A stretch of DNA of 64,000 bases, from the NCBI GenBank assembly GCA_038882955.1, contig JAVZNC010000004.1, positions 64,001 through 128,000 on the forward strand, written 5' to 3'. This document shows, one piece after another, positions 28,632 to 62,874 of this stretch. Position 1 is the first letter of the stretch. Every line of letters begins with the position of its first letter. The notes beneath the pieces are model-generated. The model worked only from the letters and a program-made list of their open reading frames with translations, did not search any database and was not told where the DNA came from. A program made the translations under genes and the position numbers. Source of the DNA: Candidatus Bathyarchaeia archaeon (GTDB taxonomy: Archaea > Thermoproteota > Bathyarchaeia > Bathyarchaeales > Bathycorpusculaceae).

Positions 28632-28759
28632 TGGTGGGGTAGCTGGGATTTGAACCCAGGACCGCCAGCGCCCCAGGCTGGTATCCTTGACCACTCCAGC
28701 CGCCCTAGGTGCTGGAATACCCGCCACCGAACCTAAGGCGGAAGCTAGACGACTACCCC
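28632..28759 (-). tRNA. tRNA-Pro(GGG) with 49-nt D-loop intron (28694-28742), CCA encoded
   Basis: GGGGTAG/CTACCCC acceptor; CCAGC-CT-GGG-GC-GCTGG; removing the insert restores TAGCTTGGTCAAGG; relaxed BHB motif at the junctions. Confidence 0.93.
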
Positions 28760-53994: not shown

Positions 53995-54095
53995 TGGGGC
54001 CGAGGCCGGGATTTGAACCCGGGCACTAGGCTTGCTGCCTTGGATTGTGCTCCAGTCCACAGGCCTATAGGCTTCCAGGCTACCTCACCTCGGCC
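53995..54095 (-). tRNA. tRNA-His(GTG) with encoded G-1 and CCA, 24-nt intron at 37/38 (54033-54056)
   Basis: (G)GCCGAGG/CCTCGGC-C-CCA; TAGGC-CT-GTG-G^A-GCCTA; BHB with CTGT/GCAG central helix. Confidence 0.96.
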
Positions 54096-54100
54096 ACTTT
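54081..54100. repeat. att direct repeat within the tRNA-His 5' end and leader
   Basis: TACCTCACCTCGGCCACTTT, identical to 62483-62502. Confidence 0.95.
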
Positions 54101-54133
54101 TTCGGTGATTTCGGTTACTTTTTGTAGCTCTAA

Positions 54134-55453
54134 TCATTTTCGCTTCCTCAGAAATATTAGGTTATCTTTTTGGCATACATAGTCAAATCCGACTTCCAAT
54201 AAGGCTTTAACTTCCTCAGGCGTTTCAGCCACTTTAACTGTAAACTCATCGCTTCCCTGTTCAAACATTGTTCTTTCAATGTTAATGTAGATTTCCGTAT
54301 TTCTTAACTCTTTATGTCCTAAGAACTGCTTCACGTAATAGGGATCTTTAGTTTGATGGTAAAGCATTGTAGCCTTCCAATGTCTAAAAGTGTGAAAGCT
54401 TATGCTTAACAGTCTCGGATTTTGCAGTTTAGCAGCTAAACGCTTTCGCGCTTTTAGGAATGTTGTTTTCAACGAGTTTATAGGGCCATCTCCGAAAACT
54501 CGAACACTTTCTCTAGGCAAAGCGTTAAGCATAGCTGTTAATTTTTGACTTATCTTCCACATTCTCGGGTTAGAACCTTTCTCTGGATCGTTAAGCCTTA
54601 CGATGCTCTTTTCAAAATCTATATCTATCCATTGAAGCCTTTTCGCTTCTCCACATCTCATAGCTGTTTCTTTAAGCAACTGTAGAAACGTGCTGAGTTT
54701 CTTGCCTGTTCCAGATATCAAATCATCAAGTTCTCTTTCAGTCGGTATGAAAGGTATTTTCTGAGTTCGCGCTTTGCAGAATGGTTTATCCCATGTTAGG
54801 CCGTTAAATTTAAGGAAGCGGTCATAAGCAACTATAACGTTGCGTTTTCTGTTTTCACTCCATTTTTGTTTTGCTATGATTTCTTTAACATTTTCTGGAT
54901 CACACAAGTCTGCACCTCTCTGGATTAAGGTTGTTAATGCGGTTCTGTGAAGTCGAATTGTAGCTTCCGCGTAGCCTTTCTTCTGCATATAAAAGCAATA
55001 TTCAACGATTTTGCCTTTAGCGTCTTTAAGCTGCTCTGTGCCGCCCACACTCGGCCTTTCTAGTTGGGTTTCCACTTCGGCCAAGTTTTTCGCCTCGACT
55101 TCCGAGACGCATACTCGGCGTTTACTATTAGAGTAAGGTAAACTATTTAAGCCTTTTTCTGATACAGTAAGGTTATGCGAAGCTACATCTTCACCAAAAA
55201 AGAAAGAACCGTTATCAAAAACTTCCTTAACAAAACAGCCCCTAGAGACGATCCGCTTCTCATGGTTATTCTTTCGAGAATTAAAACCTTTAAAGATTTG
55301 GCTTCCGACATTGAACTTTATCTTGCGCTCAGAAAAGCGATATCCACATAACTTACATAAATAACGTTGAACTCCAAAACCATTCTTATCATATCTAAAA
55401 CCATCTTTCCAAAACTCTTTAGAACCACATTCAGGACAACACAGCTCAGTCAT
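54134..55453 (-). CDS. Tyrosine integrase with N-terminal zinc ribbon; possible short isoform from TTG at 55084
   Basis: ETAMRCGEA (R), EKGS (K), HTFRH, LGHK, TEIY (Y); N-terminal CPECGS..CKLCG. Confidence 0.95.
   Translation of the reverse strand: MTELCCPECGSKEFWKDGFRYDKNGFGVQRYLCKLCGYRFSERKIKFNVGSQIFKGFNSRKNNHEKRIVSRGCFVKEVFDNGSFFFGEDVASHNLTVSEKGLNSLPYSNSKRRVCVSEVEAKNLAEVETQLERPSVGGTEQLKDAKGKIVEYCFYMQKKGYAEATIRLHRTALTTLIQRGADLCDPENVKEIIAKQKWSENRKRNVIVAYDRFLKFNGLTWDKPFCKARTQKIPFIPTERELDDLISGTGKKLSTFLQLLKETAMRCGEAKRLQWIDIDFEKSIVRLNDPEKGSNPRMWKISQKLTAMLNALPRESVRVFGDGPINSLKTTFLKARKRLAAKLQNPRLLSISFHTFRHWKATMLYHQTKDPYYVKQFLGHKELRNTEIYINIERTMFEQGSDEFTVKVAETPEEVKALLEVGFDYVCQKDNLIFLRKRK
55175..55351 (+). 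CDS. 58-aa protein encoded antisense inside the integrase linker
   Basis: MRSYIFTKKERTVIKNFLNKTAPRDDPLLMVILSRIKTFKDLASDIELYLALRKAIST; TATTTAA box ~25 nt upstream (leaderless). Confidence 0.65.
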   Translation: MRSYIFTKKERTVIKNFLNKTAPRDDPLLMVILSRIKTFKDLASDIELYLALRKAIST

Positions 55454-55460
55454 TAAGCTT

Positions 55461-55595
55461 CTACTCCCTTACATAATCAACAATTTCCTCAATCTTCTGC
55501 TCAAGCAACGAAACACGATCAATAAGCTCCTCTACCTTCTCCTCAAGATCCGCTACCCGATTCTCTAACTGAAGCAACAACTTCAAACAATCCAC
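55461..55595 (-). CDS. 44-aa coiled-coil protein (missed by ORF track)
   Basis: MDCLKLLLQLENRVADLEEKVEELIDRVSLLEQKIEEIVDYVRE; AGGTG SD; regular heptads. Confidence 0.75.
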   Translation of the reverse strand: MDCLKLLLQLENRVADLEEKVEELIDRVSLLEQKIEEIVDYVRE

Positions 55596-55603
55596 ATTAA
55601 CAC

Positions 55604-58600
55604 CTACCACGGCGGCCCCACTCCTAACCCACTCAAAACACCAAAAAACAACCCAAATTCACTTTGATTTAATTCGATTTCATTGAAATTTTCAGAGTTA
55701 AAGCCATGCGCACCCGACCCTTCGCGCGGGTCACGTAACATATTAGTTAGGACAGACAGCAAACTCTCAACAAATTCAAACAGTTTAGGCGCTCGGATCT
55801 TATATAATTCTAACACGTTCAGCAGAGCTGCTAAAGGATTCGCCTTCCTATTATTGCTTCTGTGCGCGAAGCATTGAATTTCTAAACGACCCACAGGCTC
55901 ATTTTGCCATGCTTCAACAAAAGGCCGAAATCTTCTTAGAAACTCATGCCTTTTCAGATTAAACCTTCTATTGCGATCATAAAGCACAATATTACCTGAA
56001 ACAAAATATCGACTATCAGAAAGCACCCTTCCATTAATACCTATGAACCCTAAACCTTTTCTATAATCATATTCGTTTTGCTCGCACACCTCTTCAAACT
56101 CTTCTATCCTTTGTTTAATTTCGCTAGGCGGAATATCATAGGCTACGTCAAAACGGCAATACCGCGCATAAGGAATAACTTTCAATTCGACCTTTTGGCT
56201 GCAAAGCCATTTAAAAAGAATATTATCGGATTCCTCAACAACAACTTTTAACGCTTTATTCAATTCCGCTTCAAGCAATGCTACATCATCAAAGAAACAT
56301 TCAATAATTTTAACCAATGTTGAAGGCAACCATAAAGGCAATTCTCGGAAAACAAATTTTCTACGTTTAACCTGCATCCAATTAACCGCATCCCAGCTTA
56401 TGTGATACCTAACCTTATACGGAAACCTTTGAATCACATAGAACCGTCTTTGAGCAAAAGGCGATCTCTTTCTAGCTTTTCGCGGTAATTTCCACAGCAT
56501 AGGCTCATGTTCAATTAATTCCTTCTTTTTCACGTCAAGCGTATTAACCGTAAGTTTTACACCATAATTATCGCTATGGCCTAATTTGCCAATAACACGC
56601 GCTAGCAACCTCATCTTTTCATTAATCTCAAGCGGAATATGCAAAAGGCCCGCTTGACTGATCTGAGCCTCTAAAAATGTTGTGTCAGGCTTACCTAACA
56701 AAGGCGCAAAAACCTTAGCTGGAATATCCTTTTCTAAGTTACTCTTTTCAAATTTGAGATTTGCCGGCGATAACGGCCATAACTTACCTGCTAAATCTTC
56801 CAATGGCTCTTTAAGCTTAGACGCGAAATATACTCTTCCGCTTTTAGTAATTTCATAAACAACATCTTCAAAGCCTTCAATTGTTTGCATCATTTCCGCG
56901 TTAGTTTGCTCTTCATACATTGATGATAAAATCTGAGCTTCAACAACTGTTAGATCATAGCCTTTCTTATTTCTTATAAGGTTGAAAATTGCTTCCTTGC
57001 TGCTATATCCATAAGCGCGTAAATGCTCAAAAAATTCTAAAAACCATTGAGAAGTTGATAATTTCTTTGAAGGCTGCTTATTGAAACCGCACCAATTAGC
57101 AAGCTGCTTTATAAAACGGTTAAGCCTTAAAGATTCACCCCATCCGCCCGATTCTAACTCATCAACCAAAGCCTTAATTTCCAAATACCATTCGCGTTCT
57201 ATTTTCTTAATACGTGCGGAAATAGAGAGAGGATAAGAAAAGTAAAAGCACCATTCGCCTGATTCCGCATCCTTCAATAATTTACGCACAGCAGGAATAT
57301 TAGGCGTATTTTTCTGTTTTGTCACTTGCCTTATATCATGGATAGGCTGTCTTTCTGAATTTAAAAGAAAAGACTGAATGCGATTTTTCTCTCTTCCAAA
57401 TCCAGACCGTTCCGCACCTTTAATTATCCACTCTTCATTAGGCAATTTAACTGCATAACGTTTAGTGCGGAAAACCACAAGCTCAACCGCATCCGCATAC
57501 TCTTTTTTAGCGCCCCAAGGCGCAAGTTTGTTAAGAAGCCTCTTTAACCGCGCCTCCTCCTTTGCAGAACACACATAAGAATCCGTATCATGGTAAATTA
57601 AAGAATCCTTCAATTGCGATTCTATAAGCCATGACATTGTTCTCGCAAAAGCTGTCACATGAGCAGCTAAGGCTAAATTTGAAAACGTTTGATCTACATC
57701 ACATAAGAGACCTGTAACCGCATTTAAAGCGATTTTCAAAGATGTTGATAATTCCTGATTGGCCCTACGCATAGCATAGAATTCAGACCATTTCTTTGAC
57801 CATTCCTCATCTTTTGCATATAGAAATCCACAAGCATCTAAAATTTGCACACGTTTTAGCTGATTCTTTGACTGCAAAAACAAAAAGTAAAGTGGAAAAT
57901 TAACAACCATTCCCGCTTTAAAATTAACTAGACCTTCTGCTCGAGCTTGCTCTTCCCTTCGATTTCTATAAACTAATGTATAATACGAAAGTTTTCTAGA
58001 TTTCTTTTGCTTTTCCTTTAACACCTCAACTTTCCATGTTGAATTTTCCAAAAATTGAATTAGAACCCAAGAGGAAAGCGCTAAAACGGACATTTCTTGA
58101 TTAACATATAACCGTGAAAATGCTTCCACAGGGCCAACTTTTTTAATCAACTCTAAAATATGATTCGCGACAGATCTAGCTTCCTCTCCATAACAAAGCC
58201 TCATTGACCTAGGCGAAAACCTGCTCATAATACTCGGATATTCACTATTCACATCATAAAACACAAAATCTCTAAAACGGCTAACTTGCCACGCTTTAAC
58301 ACGTCCACCCGCATAAAATGCTGGAAAACTCGGAAATTTCGTATATGGTGCAACCAAAATCTTAGCAATCCTCGCACCGCTTTCAAATAATTTAATAGGT
58401 GAAATATGACTTTCAATAACCTCATAACGATTCTGTTTCAAAACAAAATTAACAAAATTAGCTTTTTCAAAACCTAAAACTTCTAAAAACATTGCCGCCT
58501 TTTCTAAACATCGAGAAAGCAACTCAAAACATGACAAAAGATCATACGCGTTATATTTGCGATTCAAAAAATCTTCCGTTTCTAACTTCTTAAAAAATAT

Positions 58601-59155
58601 GTTTGTTTCAGATTGGCTTTTTAGACTCCGTTTTTTTTCATCAAGCAAATTAGATGACAAACGCATGATATCAATCGCATAACTAACAACCCTCTCTTTT
58701 CGGAAAATATAATAACTAACTTTTTGATCTCCAAACCGCGTAAACCTACGCAATAAAATATCTCTAGCATCCTTTGAAAATGCACGGATCAAATCAAATC
58801 CATAATTAAAAGCTGCAAAAACAACAATCGAAGCATCCCCCACCAACGTATCAAGCTCAACTTTGGTTAAAGCATGATCATAATGATAAATTTCCAAAGT
58901 CGGATAAGATAAAACGCCAACAAGGCGCACATCATCCCTATTACTTACATCCGTCTCCACATCAAAGAGCAGCAATTTAAAATCTTGCATACTAGAACTG
59001 AGAAACGGTTTCAATAATTCCGAATATTTTTTCACTTTCTCAGCTAAAACTTGTAAATTTGCTTTTTCTTTATCATTCAAAATGTAAATTTGACCAAAAC
59101 TTTTATCTCCAAGTCTTAACAAATCTGATAATTGGATTCCCATGCGATCCCTCAC
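55604..59155 (-). CDS. Family B DNA polymerase fused to a Rep_trans-like rolling-circle initiator domain (likely ATG start 59143)
   Basis: Exonuclease: FDVET(65), FNYGFD(121), YNAYD(205). Polymerase: YAGGR(281), YDVNSEYPS(301), KIALNAVTG(474), YHDTDS(523), KRY(565). C-terminal: CRFDVAYD(1000), SRYFV(1050), IVLYDR, RLEIQ(1092). Confidence 0.85.
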   Translation of the reverse strand: MRDRMGIQLSDLLRLGDKSFGQIYILNDKEKANLQVLAEKVKKYSELLKPFLSSSMQDFKLLLFDVETDVSNRDDVRLVGVLSYPTLEIYHYDHALTKVELDTLVGDASIVVFAAFNYGFDLIRAFSKDARDILLRRFTRFGDQKVSYYIFRKERVVSYAIDIMRLSSNLLDEKKRSLKSQSETNIFFKKLETEDFLNRKYNAYDLLSCFELLSRCLEKAAMFLEVLGFEKANFVNFVLKQNRYEVIESHISPIKLFESGARIAKILVAPYTKFPSFPAFYAGGRVKAWQVSRFRDFVFYDVNSEYPSIMSRFSPRSMRLCYGEEARSVANHILELIKKVGPVEAFSRLYVNQEMSVLALSSWVLIQFLENSTWKVEVLKEKQKKSRKLSYYTLVYRNRREEQARAEGLVNFKAGMVVNFPLYFLFLQSKNQLKRVQILDACGFLYAKDEEWSKKWSEFYAMRRANQELSTSLKIALNAVTGLLCDVDQTFSNLALAAHVTAFARTMSWLIESQLKDSLIYHDTDSYVCSAKEEARLKRLLNKLAPWGAKKEYADAVELVVFRTKRYAVKLPNEEWIIKGAERSGFGREKNRIQSFLLNSERQPIHDIRQVTKQKNTPNIPAVRKLLKDAESGEWCFYFSYPLSISARIKKIEREWYLEIKALVDELESGGWGESLRLNRFIKQLANWCGFNKQPSKKLSTSQWFLEFFEHLRAYGYSSKEAIFNLIRNKKGYDLTVVEAQILSSMYEEQTNAEMMQTIEGFEDVVYEITKSGRVYFASKLKEPLEDLAGKLWPLSPANLKFEKSNLEKDIPAKVFAPLLGKPDTTFLEAQISQAGLLHIPLEINEKMRLLARVIGKLGHSDNYGVKLTVNTLDVKKKELIEHEPMLWKLPRKARKRSPFAQRRFYVIQRFPYKVRYHISWDAVNWMQVKRRKFVFRELPLWLPSTLVKIIECFFDDVALLEAELNKALKVVVEESDNILFKWLCSQKVELKVIPYARYCRFDVAYDIPPSEIKQRIEEFEEVCEQNEYDYRKGLGFIGINGRVLSDSRYFVSGNIVLYDRNRRFNLKRHEFLRRFRPFVEAWQNEPVGRLEIQCFAHRSNNRKANPLAALLNVLELYKIRAPKLFEFVESLLSVLTNMLRDPREGSGAHGFNSENFNEIELNQSEFGLFFGVLSGLGVGPPW

Positions 59156-59191
59156 ATAAAAAAGGGGAGATGAGCCGCATCACCTCAATTT

Positions 59192-59446
59192 TTAGTAAAC
59201 GTTGATCCAAGTGATGCGCGCTTTTTTGTTAGGCGCGGGAAGTTTCAGAACAATTTTATTGCCTTCTTTGCGACCCGAAGCTAAAACCTTCTCAATCAGC
59301 TCAGGCAAAATGCCATAACGGACTTCTTCACCCGCAACATTAGCCGTTAAGATCAGACATTCTTTGTTTTCTAAGCGACCCATGCGTGCGCTAACGATTT
59401 CAGCTTCAACCCGACTGCCTAACAAATCCTCAAGAGTTATAGGCAT
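59192..59446 (-). CDS. 84-aa beta-rich protein upstream of Pol-Rep (possible SSB/accessory factor)
   Basis: GAGGGA SD, ATG; function inferred from position only. Confidence 0.7.
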   Translation of the reverse strand: MPITLEDLLGSRVEAEIVSARMGRLENKECLILTANVAGEEVRYGILPELIEKVLASGRKEGNKIVLKLPAPNKKARITWINVY

Positions 59447-59868
59447 TCATATCCCTCTTTATGGCTTTGTCTAAACCACTTCGCGCCCCCGACCCCGAGG
59501 CCATGCAGGTTTGTAGCTCACATCCGCATCCTAGCAGGCGTGCTAGGCTTTTTAAAGGAAAAATTTTAACTAGAAATTGACATAAAGAATAGCTGGGTGG
59601 AAGGCAACCCACCGCATATTCAACATCTACCAGCCTACTTGCGTTCATGGGCCATCTTCCACCCTTTAGCCCTCTTTTTGCTTAACCTTCTTTTTGGCCC
59701 TACATCGCCTCTGAGCTTCTCTCCAATATTTACGCAAGATTTCTGGATGTTTGGGTTGTCGAGCCATTCTCAACCACAACAATACTATTAATCAATGACA
59801 AGGGTTAAATATGACTTCTGCTCATAGAAAAGTAAGCTAACTGACTTTAAAAGTGACGGAAAAGTAAG

Positions 59869-60504
59869 TTGTTAGGAATATTTAAAGGGAAAGAAGCGAA
59901 ATACAACAAACTTATCCTCAAAGCCCTAGTTTACGGCGCTAAAACTACAAACCAAATTGCAGAATTCATCTATCTTAACAAAAAAGCTCAAATCAAGCCT
60001 AAAAAGACTAACTTAAACGAAGTTAAGAAAATTGTTTCCATAATTTCGAGGAAGGGAAGCCGACTAAACGAGTTGGAAGCTAAACATTACATTTATCGAG
60101 AAAAAGGCTATTGGCATTTAACTGACAAAGGTTTAGCCGTAGCCCTAACACTTTTCAACGATTTAACTGAAGTATATCCATACGTAAGAACCGACTTAAC
60201 CCTCAAAACAATTGAAAAACTGTTTAAAAAATATGGTGTAAGCGAGACTCTTAGAAAATACGGCTTCAACGATTGGACATCTAAAATCTTCAGTTGGGCC
60301 AGAAACCGAAGAAATTTTCTCGGTTTCGTTAGGAATTCTACAAATAAACTGATAAGCCAACTTATAGATTTGGATTCGCTTAGTGAAAATGAATTTCAAA
60401 ACCTGCTAATTATTCATGGCATTCAAAATTTCTTTAAAATACAGTTAAATGAAATAGAACAAACTATTTCCGAAATAATCTTAAAAGAAAATATCAAGCA
60501 TTAA
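59869..60504 (+). CDS. Winged helix-turn-helix regulator of the element
   Basis: ILKAL..GAKTTNQIA...L.ELE.KHYI....W.LT.KG. Confidence 0.72.
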   Translation: MLGIFKGKEAKYNKLILKALVYGAKTTNQIAEFIYLNKKAQIKPKKTNLNEVKKIVSIISRKGSRLNELEAKHYIYREKGYWHLTDKGLAVALTLFNDLTEVYPYVRTDLTLKTIEKLFKKYGVSETLRKYGFNDWTSKIFSWARNRRNFLGFVRNSTNKLISQLIDLDSLSENEFQNLLIIHGIQNFFKIQLNEIEQTISEIILKENIKH

Positions 60505-60515
60505 TAAAAATACAC

Positions 60516-60683
60516 TTATGTAAAAGGATTTAACGTTTCTTTCCATGCATAAAAAAGCGCCCAATACGTTTTACGCCTCTCTTCGCCCTGCAGCTTCCTC
60601 TCATCTAAATATTGCTGAACAAACTTTGAGAATTCTTCAATATTCTTACACTTTTTAACATCTTCAAACTCAAGCATTTCCAT
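60516..60683 (-). CDS. Small hypothetical protein (55 aa)
   Basis: ATG overlapping the end of the upstream ORF. Confidence 0.6.
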   Translation of the reverse strand: MEMLEFEDVKKCKNIEEFSKFVQQYLDERKLQGEERRKTYWALFYAWKETLNPFT

Positions 60684-61236
60684 TTTTCCCTTCCAAAACC
60701 TTTGAAGCTTCACGCAGCAATAAAGCCGTTGCCCGCTTAAATTTTGGATAAAGCAGTTGGGAAGCCTCAAGATATTCTTTAAATAAGCCATCATTCACGC
60801 CTTCACAGTTTACAGTTTCAGTTTTAGGCTTATCCGCTACGCCTCTCCTCTCTTTCATTTTCCTCAGCAAACTTGTAGGATTCGTTTTAATTCCCATTTC
60901 CCTAAGCTTTTCAGCTATACGCCTATAACCTAACCCTTCCTTCTGAAGCTTCTCAATAAGTTGAAACGTCTGCTCATTCCACATGATAGGCTTCAATTCT
61001 TTAGGCTGTTCTGAAGGTTCAAGCGTAAGCGTAGCCTCTGTTTGGTTATTACTGTTAGGCTTCTTTAAGAAAAAGAATAGTTTGCCATTATAAGATTGCT
61101 GGAAAACCTTAACGCCTTCCGCCTTCAACTGCTCATTCCACTCGGATTTAAAAGCTGAATGCGGAATCAAAAGGCAAGCGCCAAAATCAGTCATTTCCTC
61201 TGGATAGGATTCACTTAGGATTTCGTATAAAACCAT
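60670..61236 (-). CDS. HTH-containing protein
   Basis: LQKEGLGYRRIAEKLREMGIKTNPTSLLRK. Confidence 0.72.
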   Translation of the reverse strand: MVLYEILSESYPEEMTDFGACLLIPHSAFKSEWNEQLKAEGVKVFQQSYNGKLFFFLKKPNSNNQTEATLTLEPSEQPKELKPIMWNEQTFQLIEKLQKEGLGYRRIAEKLREMGIKTNPTSLLRKMKERRGVADKPKTETVNCEGVNDGLFKEYLEASQLLYPKFKRATALLLREASKVLEGKNGNA

Positions 61237-61523
61237 TTTACCCCTAAAAATAAATATGCAATTCCAAATTTAAATTTTAATATTTATGTTTAAATATGCT
61301 TCAGGTATGCTTCAAAGCATATGCGGTATATATTTATGTTAATTAAATAGGTGACAAAAATCGATAAAATTCTGACTTCTTCTTGTTTAATCAACAATTC
61401 ACTTCCTAAAAGAAAATAAACGGAAATAAAACGATATTTAAACTTAGAGAAGCTCAAAATGAAGAGATTTTCTCCTATAAAAATTAATTAAATTCACATG
61501 TGAAATGATGATTTAGGCAACTG

Positions 61524-62171
61524 TCACGTTTTCTTCGTTTCCCTCTCAATTATGTCTAAAGCGAAACGCCTAAGATAGTTGAAGCCCGTCTGGTAGCTTT
61601 CCAAATCTAAACGCCTCTGCACTTTAAAAGCACCTATAATGGTTGAGTCTTGTTTTATGATGTCCGCGGCTACGGTTTCCCTGAACAAGTGCATCCAGAT
61701 TTTAGGCGATAAACTTCTCACTATGTTGAACAGTTGCCTATCGGATAAATGTTCATTTGGAATTATGACTATGTTTCCAAACACGCTTCTAACCGAAGGG
61801 AAAAAATACTGTGGCTTAGGCTGTAAACCGTTCAAGTAGCTAAGATATTCCAATATTGGCTTTGCCAAAGGCTCAGTTAAGGATACGCTTTTAATTGACT
61901 GTTTCGTTAAAACCGTCTTCTTCCGTTTCTTCAAAAGCGTGAAGCGGATATGAAGCATACCCTCTTCAACTTCAAAGTCGCTTAACTCAAGCCGCGCTAA
62001 TTCGCTTCGCCTTTTACCTGTAAGCCTCAAAATGCAAAGTAACGCTTTAGCTCTCAGCTTGAAAAACACGTTTGGTATGGCTTCAGCTTTAGCTAACAAT
62101 TCGCTAAACTCTTCCTCGCTAATCACAGTTTTTCTCTGTGTTCTATCCAATAGCCCTCTAACATGCGTCAT
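61524..62171 (-). CDS. Second tyrosine recombinase, catalytic domain only (215 aa)
   Basis: LTGKRRSEL (R), LLKK (K), HLFRET, GFNY (Y). Confidence 0.88.
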   Translation of the reverse strand: MTHVRGLLDRTQRKTVISEEEFSELLAKAEAIPNVFFKLRAKALLCILRLTGKRRSELARLELSDFEVEEGMLHIRFTLLKKRKKTVLTKQSIKSVSLTEPLAKPILEYLSYLNGLQPKPQYFFPSVRSVFGNIVIIPNEHLSDRQLFNIVRSLSPKIWMHLFRETVAADIIKQDSTIIGAFKVQRRLDLESYQTGFNYLRRFALDIIERETKKT

Positions 62172-62174
62172 GTT

Positions 62175-62258
62175 TCATTCTCTCCCTGTAATGTCTAATG
62201 AATCTAACAAAAGCGAAGCGAAAAGGCTAGAGCCGTCGATCACAAAGTCATCTGACAT
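62175..62258 (-). CDS. 27-aa acidic peptide ORF
   Basis: AGGTGA SD; MSDDFVIDGSSLFASLLLDSLDITGRE; abuts the recombinase start. Confidence 0.45.
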   Translation of the reverse strand: MSDDFVIDGSSLFASLLLDSLDITGRE

Positions 62259-62397
62259 AATCACCTACCCTCTTTATTCTACGCTTATCCTTCTCTAAAC
62301 ATTCATTTATCATAACGTTCTCAAGCTGAAGCTGATACAAAACTTCACGGTTAATCTTGTATTCTAAACTACGCTTCCTTCTCCTTTTTTCACTCAT
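62248..62397 (-). CDS. 49-aa basic peptide ORF
   Basis: GGTG SD; MSEKRRRKRSLEYKINREVLYQLQLENVMINECLEKDKRRIKRVGDYVR. Confidence 0.5.
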   Translation of the reverse strand: MSEKRRRKRSLEYKINREVLYQLQLENVMINECLEKDKRRIKRVGDYVR

Positions 62398-62482
62398 TCA
62401 AAACACCACTTTCCATAAATTGAAAAACAAAAAAGGAGTTAGTGTGGGTTTTAAGTGGAGAAATCTCCACTCTCAGCCGATT

Positions 62483-62502
62483 TACCTCACCTCGGCCACT
62501 TT
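62483..62502. repeat. att direct repeat (duplicated tRNA-His 5' fragment)
   Basis: TACCTCACCTCGGCCACTTT, identical to 54081-54100. Confidence 0.95.
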
Positions 62503-62539
62503 CGTTTTGGTTTGTCATTGCTATTTTGTTTTGTAGGCG

Positions 62540-62554
62540 CTTATTTAGGTTTTT
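62540..62554 (-). promoter_or_regulatory. Putative native tRNA-His promoter (BRE/TATA), displaced by the element
   Basis: Minus strand AAAAACC-TAAATAAG ~45 nt upstream of the duplicated tRNA 5' end. Confidence 0.55.
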
Positions 62555-62874
62555 GAGTTCGTCAATTTTACGTTTTATTATGTTGTTAAATTGATAGCCC
62601 CCTCTAGTTTTTCTTTGCGGGGCTTGACGTATCTAATTTTGGAATATGGATTATATGAACTTGTGGACATAATGCTAATTGGTGGCCCATCCTTGAATGA
62701 GAAGAAGCTTCGCAAGATGCTTGAGAAGATGGTTATTCTAGCAGTGCTGTTGAGGAAATTCTTAAGTGGTACACTTCTAATCCTTCGAAATAATGGGCTT
62801 GCGGCTAGTTGCGTTTTTGATTAAAGTTTATATGTGCAGTTTTACGTTTAGATTAAATCAGCGGAAGTGTTTGT

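Follow-up and report, generated by a model that had tools for sequence, protein, structure and literature searches.

An integrative element at the 5′ end of tRNA-His in a Bathyarchaeia archaeon: displacement of the tRNA promoter and possible transcription from the element side

In the genome of a Candidatus Bathyarchaeia archaeon (GenBank assembly GCA_038882955.1), the tRNA-His gene lies directly behind an integrase gene, and a copy of its first nucleotides lies 8.4 kb away, next to a sequence that resembles its promoter. If an integrative element has come between this gene and its promoter, from where is the tRNA transcribed? An earlier note on this DNA, made from the letters alone, had raised the question, and we followed it up computationally. 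The locus is contained in a stretch of 64,000 nucleotides (nt), hereafter the window (contig JAVZNC010000004.1, contig 4 of the assembly, 64001–128000), in which all positions below are counted unless a relative's locus is named. The assembly is a metagenome-assembled genome of 1.54 Mb in 31 contigs, with a completeness of 95.6% and a contamination of 6.1%. Relatives are referred to by genome (G) and locus (L) numbers, G000 being the host genome itself and G003 a relative of the same genus whose tRNA-His locus is L002. In addition, contigs from four public DNA runs were compared with the window; the public runs that contain this stretch are hot-spring metagenomes.

The intact tRNA-His(GUG) gene occupies 53995–54095 on the minus strand, as judged with Rfam and ARAGORN, with G-1 at 54095, position 1 at 54094, a discriminator C at 53998, which G-1 faces, and an encoded CCA at 53997–53995. 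The Rfam tRNA model matched 53998–54094 of this strand at 44.9 bits. ARAGORN with default settings missed the gene and, when introns were allowed, returned a wrong call, “Asp gtc i(37,24)”. When 54033–54056 (minus strand), a canonical (37/38) intron of 24 nt, was excised, the same program called tRNA-His(gtg), and the spliced exons aligned with the intron-less tRNA-His genes of relatives. Drawn by hand, the intron region can take the form of a bulge-helix-bulge motif with a 4-base-pair (bp) helix and the bulges GGA and CAA, which would be cut according to the usual rule. Since ARAGORN mislabels the intron-bearing gene, tRNA-His counts obtained with default tools in Bathyarchaeia are expected to be too low. 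A gene labelled “Tyr gta” in one relative (L023) is probably another mislabelled intron-bearing tRNA-His; its first 20 nt are those of tRNA-His.

A repeat search detected an exact direct repeat of 20 nt at 54081–54100 and 62483–62502, and blastn found these two copies only in the whole assembly. Read on the minus strand, the repeat consists of 5 leader nt, G-1 (54095) and tRNA positions 1–14, which is the extent that the earlier note had assigned to the duplicated core. The left-hand copy adjoins the intact tRNA, and the right-hand copy, which adjoins host DNA, is a displaced 5′ fragment of tRNA-His, a stub stopping at position 14. Together they bracket an 8.4-kb element (54101–62482). Alignment with G003 revealed an empty site in which the flanks are joined and the 8.4 kb is absent, confirming that the element lies between the repeats: positions 16–1520 of L002 align to 63999–62483 of the window and positions 1485–1653 to 54116–53947, and the downstream side aligns also to 53955–53013. 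The earlier note had expected the upstream side of the empty allele to follow the window from 62503 onward rather than from 54101 onward. This was the case for 1.5 kb, including a B recognition element (BRE)/TATA-like 19-mer that G003 shares with 62540–62558, but not for the 16 nt immediately upstream of the repeat, which are closer to the element side (54101–54116) than to 62503–62519. Because of this resemblance, the identity between attB and attP probably extended originally over ~36 nt. The locus shows three marks of an island with a displaced 5′ tRNA gene (tDNA) fragment, namely an internal tyrosine recombinase, an intact tRNA gene with a same-orientation 5′ fragment upstream, and an empty site, and insertion at the start of tRNA-His is confirmed as a structural observation. 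An element of the displaced 5′ tDNA fragment kind was reportedly described by Zhao and Williams in 2002.

The same layout recurs among relatives of the integrase. Our survey of species-representative genomes collected 331 such relatives, from which 80 loci were retained for examination; nearly all of these are labelled Bathyarchaeia or Bathyarchaeota, and a few are titled just “uncultured archaeon”. Downstream of the integrase stop codon, 28 of the 80 loci carry a co-oriented tRNA at a distance of 24–72 nt (149 nt in one case), 22 carry a convergent tRNA, i.e., the classical 3′-end arrangement, 2 (L094 and L098) carry the start of a co-oriented 23S rRNA gene ~220 nt downstream, and nothing was detected in the remaining 28. 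According to their ARAGORN labels, the 28 co-oriented tRNAs comprise His (11), Ser-GCT (6), Phe (3), Pro-GGG (3), Met (2), Ser-TGA (1), Leu-AAG (1) and “Tyr” (1). In a maximum-likelihood tree of 69 integrases, from which 12 of 81 rows had been dropped as shorter than 300 amino acids (aa) or without a stop codon, a split with support of 100/98 isolates 25 rows, including the integrase of the window. These rows comprise 19 co-oriented cases, 6 with nothing detected and no convergent case; the 22 convergent cases all fall outside this group, as do the 3 Pro-GGG and the 2 rRNA cases. Inspection by eye showed that 4 of the 6 rows with nothing detected are unintegrated attP forms, in which the integrase stop is followed by a spacer, a tRNA 5′ core and unrelated DNA (a His core in L025 and L027, a Ser core in L034 and a Met/Leu-type core in L038), and that in the other 2 the contig breaks off within the tRNA gene (L028 and L041); all 25 rows thus have a co-oriented tRNA start behind the integrase stop. 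Such attP forms were found for these related elements and not for that of the window. Going by the tree and the gene contexts, the co-oriented 5′-end layout is an inherited habit of this whole Bathyarchaeia integrase branch. The rRNA loci L094 and L098, for their part, suggest that some members of the integrase family target the start of an rRNA gene.

Where transcription could start and stop around the two junctions was then compared. A 12-nt BRE/TATA weight matrix was trained on 41 native tRNA upstream regions of the host genome; on 5000 random 60-nt windows it gave a median of 1.6 and a 95th percentile of 8.5. The best match of the region was the 12-mer starting at 62554 on the minus strand, with a score of 12.0. 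It belongs to the original BRE/TATA-like promoter of tRNA-His (62540–62554, minus strand), which is now directed into the element, in agreement with the earlier note. The T-tract that this promoter was said to meet is also present, as T6 at 62434–62429 and T5 at 62427–62423 of the minus strand; this oligo-T tract (T6-G-T5, 62423–62434), 48 nt beyond the core, is a candidate terminator. On the element side of the core, folding predicted an 8-bp hairpin (62453–62472, minus strand), and a related imperfect palindrome is visible at this place in the flanks of relatives, where it precedes the oligo-T in most. All 10 element-side flanks compared contain a T-run of at least 4 nt at offset 37–51 past the core, and in 6 of them it reaches 5 nt or more; the baseline for a T5 run anywhere in a random 90-nt window is 21%.

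At the other junction, the intact tRNA is co-oriented with the integrase gene and begins 38 nt after its stop, as had been noted (TGA, 54134–54136; gap, 54133–54096). The distance from the stop to the core is 33 nt. This element-derived spacer (54101–54133, minus strand) contains no T-run longer than 2 and carries an acceptor-stem-like motif ~20 nt before the tRNA. When this motif was compared with tRNA starts, the best ungapped 12-mer match averaged 6.90 for the cognate tRNA, 6.64 for non-cognate tRNAs and 6.02 for shuffled sequence and was clear only at the Pro-GGG loci (9–11 of 12); possibly it is a generic acceptor-like site. In all 29 co-oriented cases, the interval from the integrase stop to the tRNA lacks a T-run of 5 or more, and on the minus strand of the window there is no T5 run from 55196 down to the tRNA. 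Matrix scanning of the 70 nt in front of the intact tRNA of the window gave no support for a promoter dedicated to it (score, 4.0). Matches were present inside the integrase open reading frame (ORF) at 55157 (11.1) and 54856 (10.7), with a similar frequency elsewhere in the element. A scan for sigma-70 promoters and hairpin terminators detected nothing above shuffled sequences; these models are not applicable to an archaeon.

As a whole, this layout led us to the following scheme. The element would have recombined through the short core that covers the very start of tRNA-His. Because it carries its own copy of the core right after the integrase gene, the intact tRNA now starts 38 nt after the integrase stop codon, whereas the original promoter, the leader and the 14-nt tRNA stub are left 8.4 kb away at the other end. 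In the free element, the oligo-T just past the core would end the integrase transcript; integration puts this oligo-T downstream of the host promoter and lets the integrase gene run on into the tRNA and the tRNA's own T-tract. Since there is no terminator between the integrase and the core and an oligo-T lies beyond the core, integration would swap not only the promoter but also the terminator. tRNA-His would then be supplied by element-side transcription, most likely as the tail of an integrase or polymerase-integrase transcript from which it is freed by tRNA processing, and a BRE/TATA-like sequence formed by the last integrase codons may add to its expression. The host promoter would probably give only a short dead-end RNA of ~100 nt that halts at the oligo-T tract; the putative chimeric RNA of 109 nt has an unremarkable predicted fold (z-score, −1.5). 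Co-transcription with the integrase followed by tRNA processing is the version that the layout leads us to favour. We infer from the same layout, as the earlier note did, the source of transcription, the short chimeric RNA and the tie between host fitness and the element.

Taken together, 5′-end integration, the swap of promoter and terminator, element-side transcription of tRNA-His and the branch-wide habit form a reading to which we give a probability of roughly 0.75. Several features of the host genome weigh against it. The best matrix score in the 60 nt upstream of the intact tRNA, 4.0, lies at about the 70th percentile of random sequence. The ORFs of the polymerase and of the early part of the integrase contain many T5–T6 runs, at which a long operon transcript could end before it reaches the tRNA. 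The attR leader has a 6-nt gap relative to G003 in the 62503–62519 region; the far junction may have decayed, and excision of the element may have become impossible. Finally, ~4% of the genome may be missing, and a second tRNA-His could lie there.

This last point belongs to a different explanation, in which the host does not depend on the element at all, either because a second tRNA-His gene remained unassembled or because in most cells the site is empty and the native promoter in place. Points in its favour are the completeness of 95.6%, the two tRNA-His matches seen in several relatives, often at contig ends, and joints in contigs of the public runs that skip ~8.35–8.49 kb between the tRNA and the far side. 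The genome-wide scan that the earlier note had called for nevertheless yielded no second tRNA-His in the assembly by ARAGORN with introns allowed (46 tRNAs), by the Rfam model (41 hits) or by blastn with the pre-tRNA, and in 5 of 5 other genomes in which an integrase or a remnant adjoins tRNA-His, the sole match to a 17-nt tRNA-start pattern that continues into a tRNA lies behind this integrase. The joints (54101>62451 in one run and 54102>62593 in another) have only 27 and 20 nt on their shorter side, miss the repeat, and fit related strains better than the strain of the window; we did not count them as evidence for an empty allele or for excision. Independence of the host is thus improbable in our estimate. 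Far less credible still is the view that no integration took place and that the repeat arose by chance or from a chimeric assembly. The assembly is metagenome-derived, with 6% contamination, but the repeat is exact over 20 nt and unique, the flanks are syntenic with G003, and the same architecture is seen again in many genomes. Moreover, one public-run contig covers 62119–63166, across the far junction, with no differences, although this run may be the genome's own source sample. Another contig begins at 54071 and was not counted as bridging the near junction because its tRNA side amounts to just 30 nt.

A closer competitor accepts the integration and differs in what drives the tRNA: not read-through but mainly an element-borne promoter formed by the last integrase codons and the stop, where AGG AAA CGN AAA TAA/TGA would be read as a BRE plus a TATA box. 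The integrase family ends throughout in (L/I)(F/Y)RKRK-stop, and the median matrix scores of the integrase 3′ ends, 6.2 for 29 co-oriented and 7.8 for 22 convergent loci, exceed the random median of 1.6. Two relatives (L003 and L020) keep only the last 52–59 integrase codons upstream of tRNA-His, and their stop-overlapping 12-mer scores 9.4 at −56/−57, the native promoter being at −58. The motif is coding-constrained, however, so that its conservation proves nothing; the co-oriented loci do not score above the convergent ones, which gives no sign of selection for a promoter, and the site in the window has a TGA stop and scores 4.0. We therefore hold a promoter of this kind to be possible but less probable than read-through as the main source of tRNA-His. 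More speculative again, by a little, is a general form of the idea: that 5′-end attack is 3′-end attack mirrored, made possible by an RKRK-stop that doubles as BRE/TATA, that each integration would replace the tRNA promoter and swap the terminators, and that decayed integrase 3′ ends would be kept as tRNA promoters.

Traces of repeated use of tRNA-His are common in relatives. By tblastn, an integrase or a remnant lies directly upstream of tRNA-His in 8 of 20 relatives' loci. With an nhmmer profile built from 66 integrase 3′ ends, a match within 200 nt upstream of tRNA-His was found in 9 of 16 relatives, some of which are the same records as the training loci; the same profile matched upstream of 2 of 44 other tRNAs of the host genome and in 0 of 300 random windows. 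Five other genomes were searched for a far-end copy of the core; 2 of them have one on the same contig and strand, 20.6 and 7.4 kb upstream. The copy in L108 comes after a host-type upstream region, and that in L109 (7.4 kb) lies behind another decayed integrase end, indicating a tandem array. Apparently unoccupied tRNA-His genes (L002, at 1485–1505, L008, L015, L003 and L011) have degenerate copies of their own 5′ ends 20–45 nt upstream, and the upstream regions of L008 and L015 also hold codons for LYRKRK-stop; these are probably scars of earlier insertions.

The stranded host promoter was itself considered as a fossil integrase end. The stop region of the integrase remnant in L020 (about −57 to −39), which belongs to another family of the same order, agrees with 62540–62558 of the window at 18 of 19 nt and has the same 38-nt spacing. 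A tblastn search with the integrase against the 600 nt upstream in G000 and G003 gave a best E value of 0.036 in the wrong place, and the nhmmer integrase-3′-end profile did not match the host promoter (E, 74). With both the protein and the profile searches negative, we rejected this candidate for now.

The integrase that adjoins tRNA-His (54134–55453, minus strand) is an intact tyrosine recombinase of 439 aa with an N-terminal zinc ribbon and the C-terminus RKRK-stop. It matches Pfam Phage_integrase (PF00589) at 60.9 bits (cut-off, 27.1) and, in residues 6–42, an NCBIfam IS1/IS1595 Zn domain at 33 bits. Its score against archaeal XerA (NCBIfam NF040815), 88.2 bits, is below the cut-off of 220; on these scores, the protein is a relative of XerA-like recombinases, not XerA. 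A tblastn search against plasmids and phages found nothing above 28% identity; its matches were to bacterial integrases and to one integrase of an uncultured archaeon.

Upstream of the integrase on the same strand, a candidate heptad-rich small ORF of 41 aa (55461–55586), read from the sequence, fills the gap to a family-B DNA polymerase-like protein of 1183 aa (55604–59155). This protein matched PHROG DNA-polymerase families with E values of 7e-10, 1.2e-7 and 6.3e-7. Putative exonuclease and polymerase motifs are visible in the first ~620 aa of the translation, and the C-terminal extension of ~560 aa has no match. No Pfam or NCBIfam family matched the protein, and matches in PDB reached E 0.76 only; its top Atlas match, a DNA_pol_B_2 cluster (0.87), serves as a lead only. 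A stretch of 27 aa of its C-terminus occurs with 85% identity upstream of the integrase in G011 (L004). The presence of the polymerase-like gene beside the integrase suggests a small self-replicating integrative element. Towards the far end lies a second ORF resembling a tyrosine recombinase (61524–62171, minus strand; 215 aa; PF00589, 41.9 bits), which has no similarity to the 439-aa integrase. Upstream of it, in the 61524–62400 region, the sequence holds an ORF of 49 aa and is interrupted by a change of frame and an in-frame stop, and the 215-aa ORF is probably the tail of a broken gene; small indels near this gene occur in related public-run contigs. The element also holds several further small ORFs without a family match.

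Across the host genome, the wider integrase family accounts for at least 10 loci, on contigs C1, C3, C5, C7, C12, C13, C20 and C23. Copies are convergent at tRNA-Cys, tRNA-Phe, tRNA-Arg and tRNA-Asn, and a co-oriented remnant stands at the very start of contig 5, before tRNA-Glu(CTC). Many of the small contigs may be such integrase elements. The window itself contains a tRNA-Pro(GGG) at 28632–28706 (minus strand; a partial Rfam match of 35.4 bits) with a copy of a tRNA-Pro-like 5′ end upstream; a weak match to the integrase-3′-end profile in the same upstream region (15 bits; E, 4e-4) means that this may be another old insertion of the Pro-GGG type.

Cases that break the usual integration rule reveal what the element must supply instead; for an entire and abundant integrase branch of this uncultured, globally common archaeal class, breaking it is the norm. 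If the reading preferred above is correct, a single-copy essential tRNA would have been put under the transcription of mobile DNA, a point of interest for the question of how elements of this kind reach fixation. Only under the more speculative general form, with its mirrored attack and retained integrase ends, would tRNA-His expression in this lineage be run largely by sequence derived from mobile elements, and the integrated and the free state could then be sensed through the differing 3′ ends of the integrase transcript. Matched attP/attB/attL/attR sets for several tRNA targets, together with the 3′-end sister group, make both the switch of target side and the exchange of promoter and terminator testable in vitro.

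The principle of promoter displacement by 5′-side integration is already published. A 2021 review of archaeal tyrosine recombinases calls pTN3-like integrases, which are SSV-type “suicidal” enzymes (pTN3 and TKV4 at tRNA-Leu), “unique in archaea” in using the tRNA 5′ half, and states that the integrase promoter drives the recombinant tRNA (PMC8371274). For Thermococcales, the regenerated tRNA-Leu is likewise described as “separated from its original promoter” (Cossu et al. 2017, PMC5495485). The element of the window shares with them a tyrosine recombinase that uses the 5′ part of a tRNA gene and a regenerated tRNA cut off from its original promoter; the tRNA of the pTN3-like systems is said to be expressed from the integrase side. 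The two differ in construction. In pTN3, attP is located within the integrase ORF, which is therefore split upon integration, and a core of 41 bp reaches the anticodon, whereas in the window the 439-aa integrase is unsplit and the 20-nt core ends at position 14. attP is thus not within the integrase ORF, as it is in the SSV type, and the attP forms of relatives show the same order as the window; attB does lie in the tRNA 5′ half, though only to position 14. The tRNA of the window stands behind the 3′ end of a whole integrase gene, that of pTN3 behind an N-terminal integrase fragment. Compared by description and layout, the Bathyarchaeia branch is a second, unrelated-looking archaeal case of 5′-half use.

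Recombination at the 5′-distal side is called “considerably less frequent” in a survey of thaumarchaeal elements and is represented there by one case, CalSub-E1 of Ca. Caldiarchaeum subterraneum, among 39 tRNA-integrated elements (Krupovic et al. 2019, PMC6563490). The Islander collection lists a 5′ fragment in 159 of 3919 islands (PMC4383910). Like the element of the window, these are tyrosine-integrase islands upstream of the regenerated tRNA with the 5′ fragment at the far end; in contrast to it, they are mostly bacterial, and the cores of their class lie at the anticodon loop or the T loop rather than at the acceptor/D-arm end. A further difference is that in the present case the arrangement extends to a whole integrase branch, of which our literature search, supplements not covered, found no description. 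What sets the present case apart is the combination of an unsplit integrase with a short acceptor/D-arm core that includes the leader and G-1; a whole Bathyarchaeia branch with several tRNA targets, standing beside a sister group that uses 3′ ends; and, as the layout would have it, a terminator swap alongside the promoter swap.

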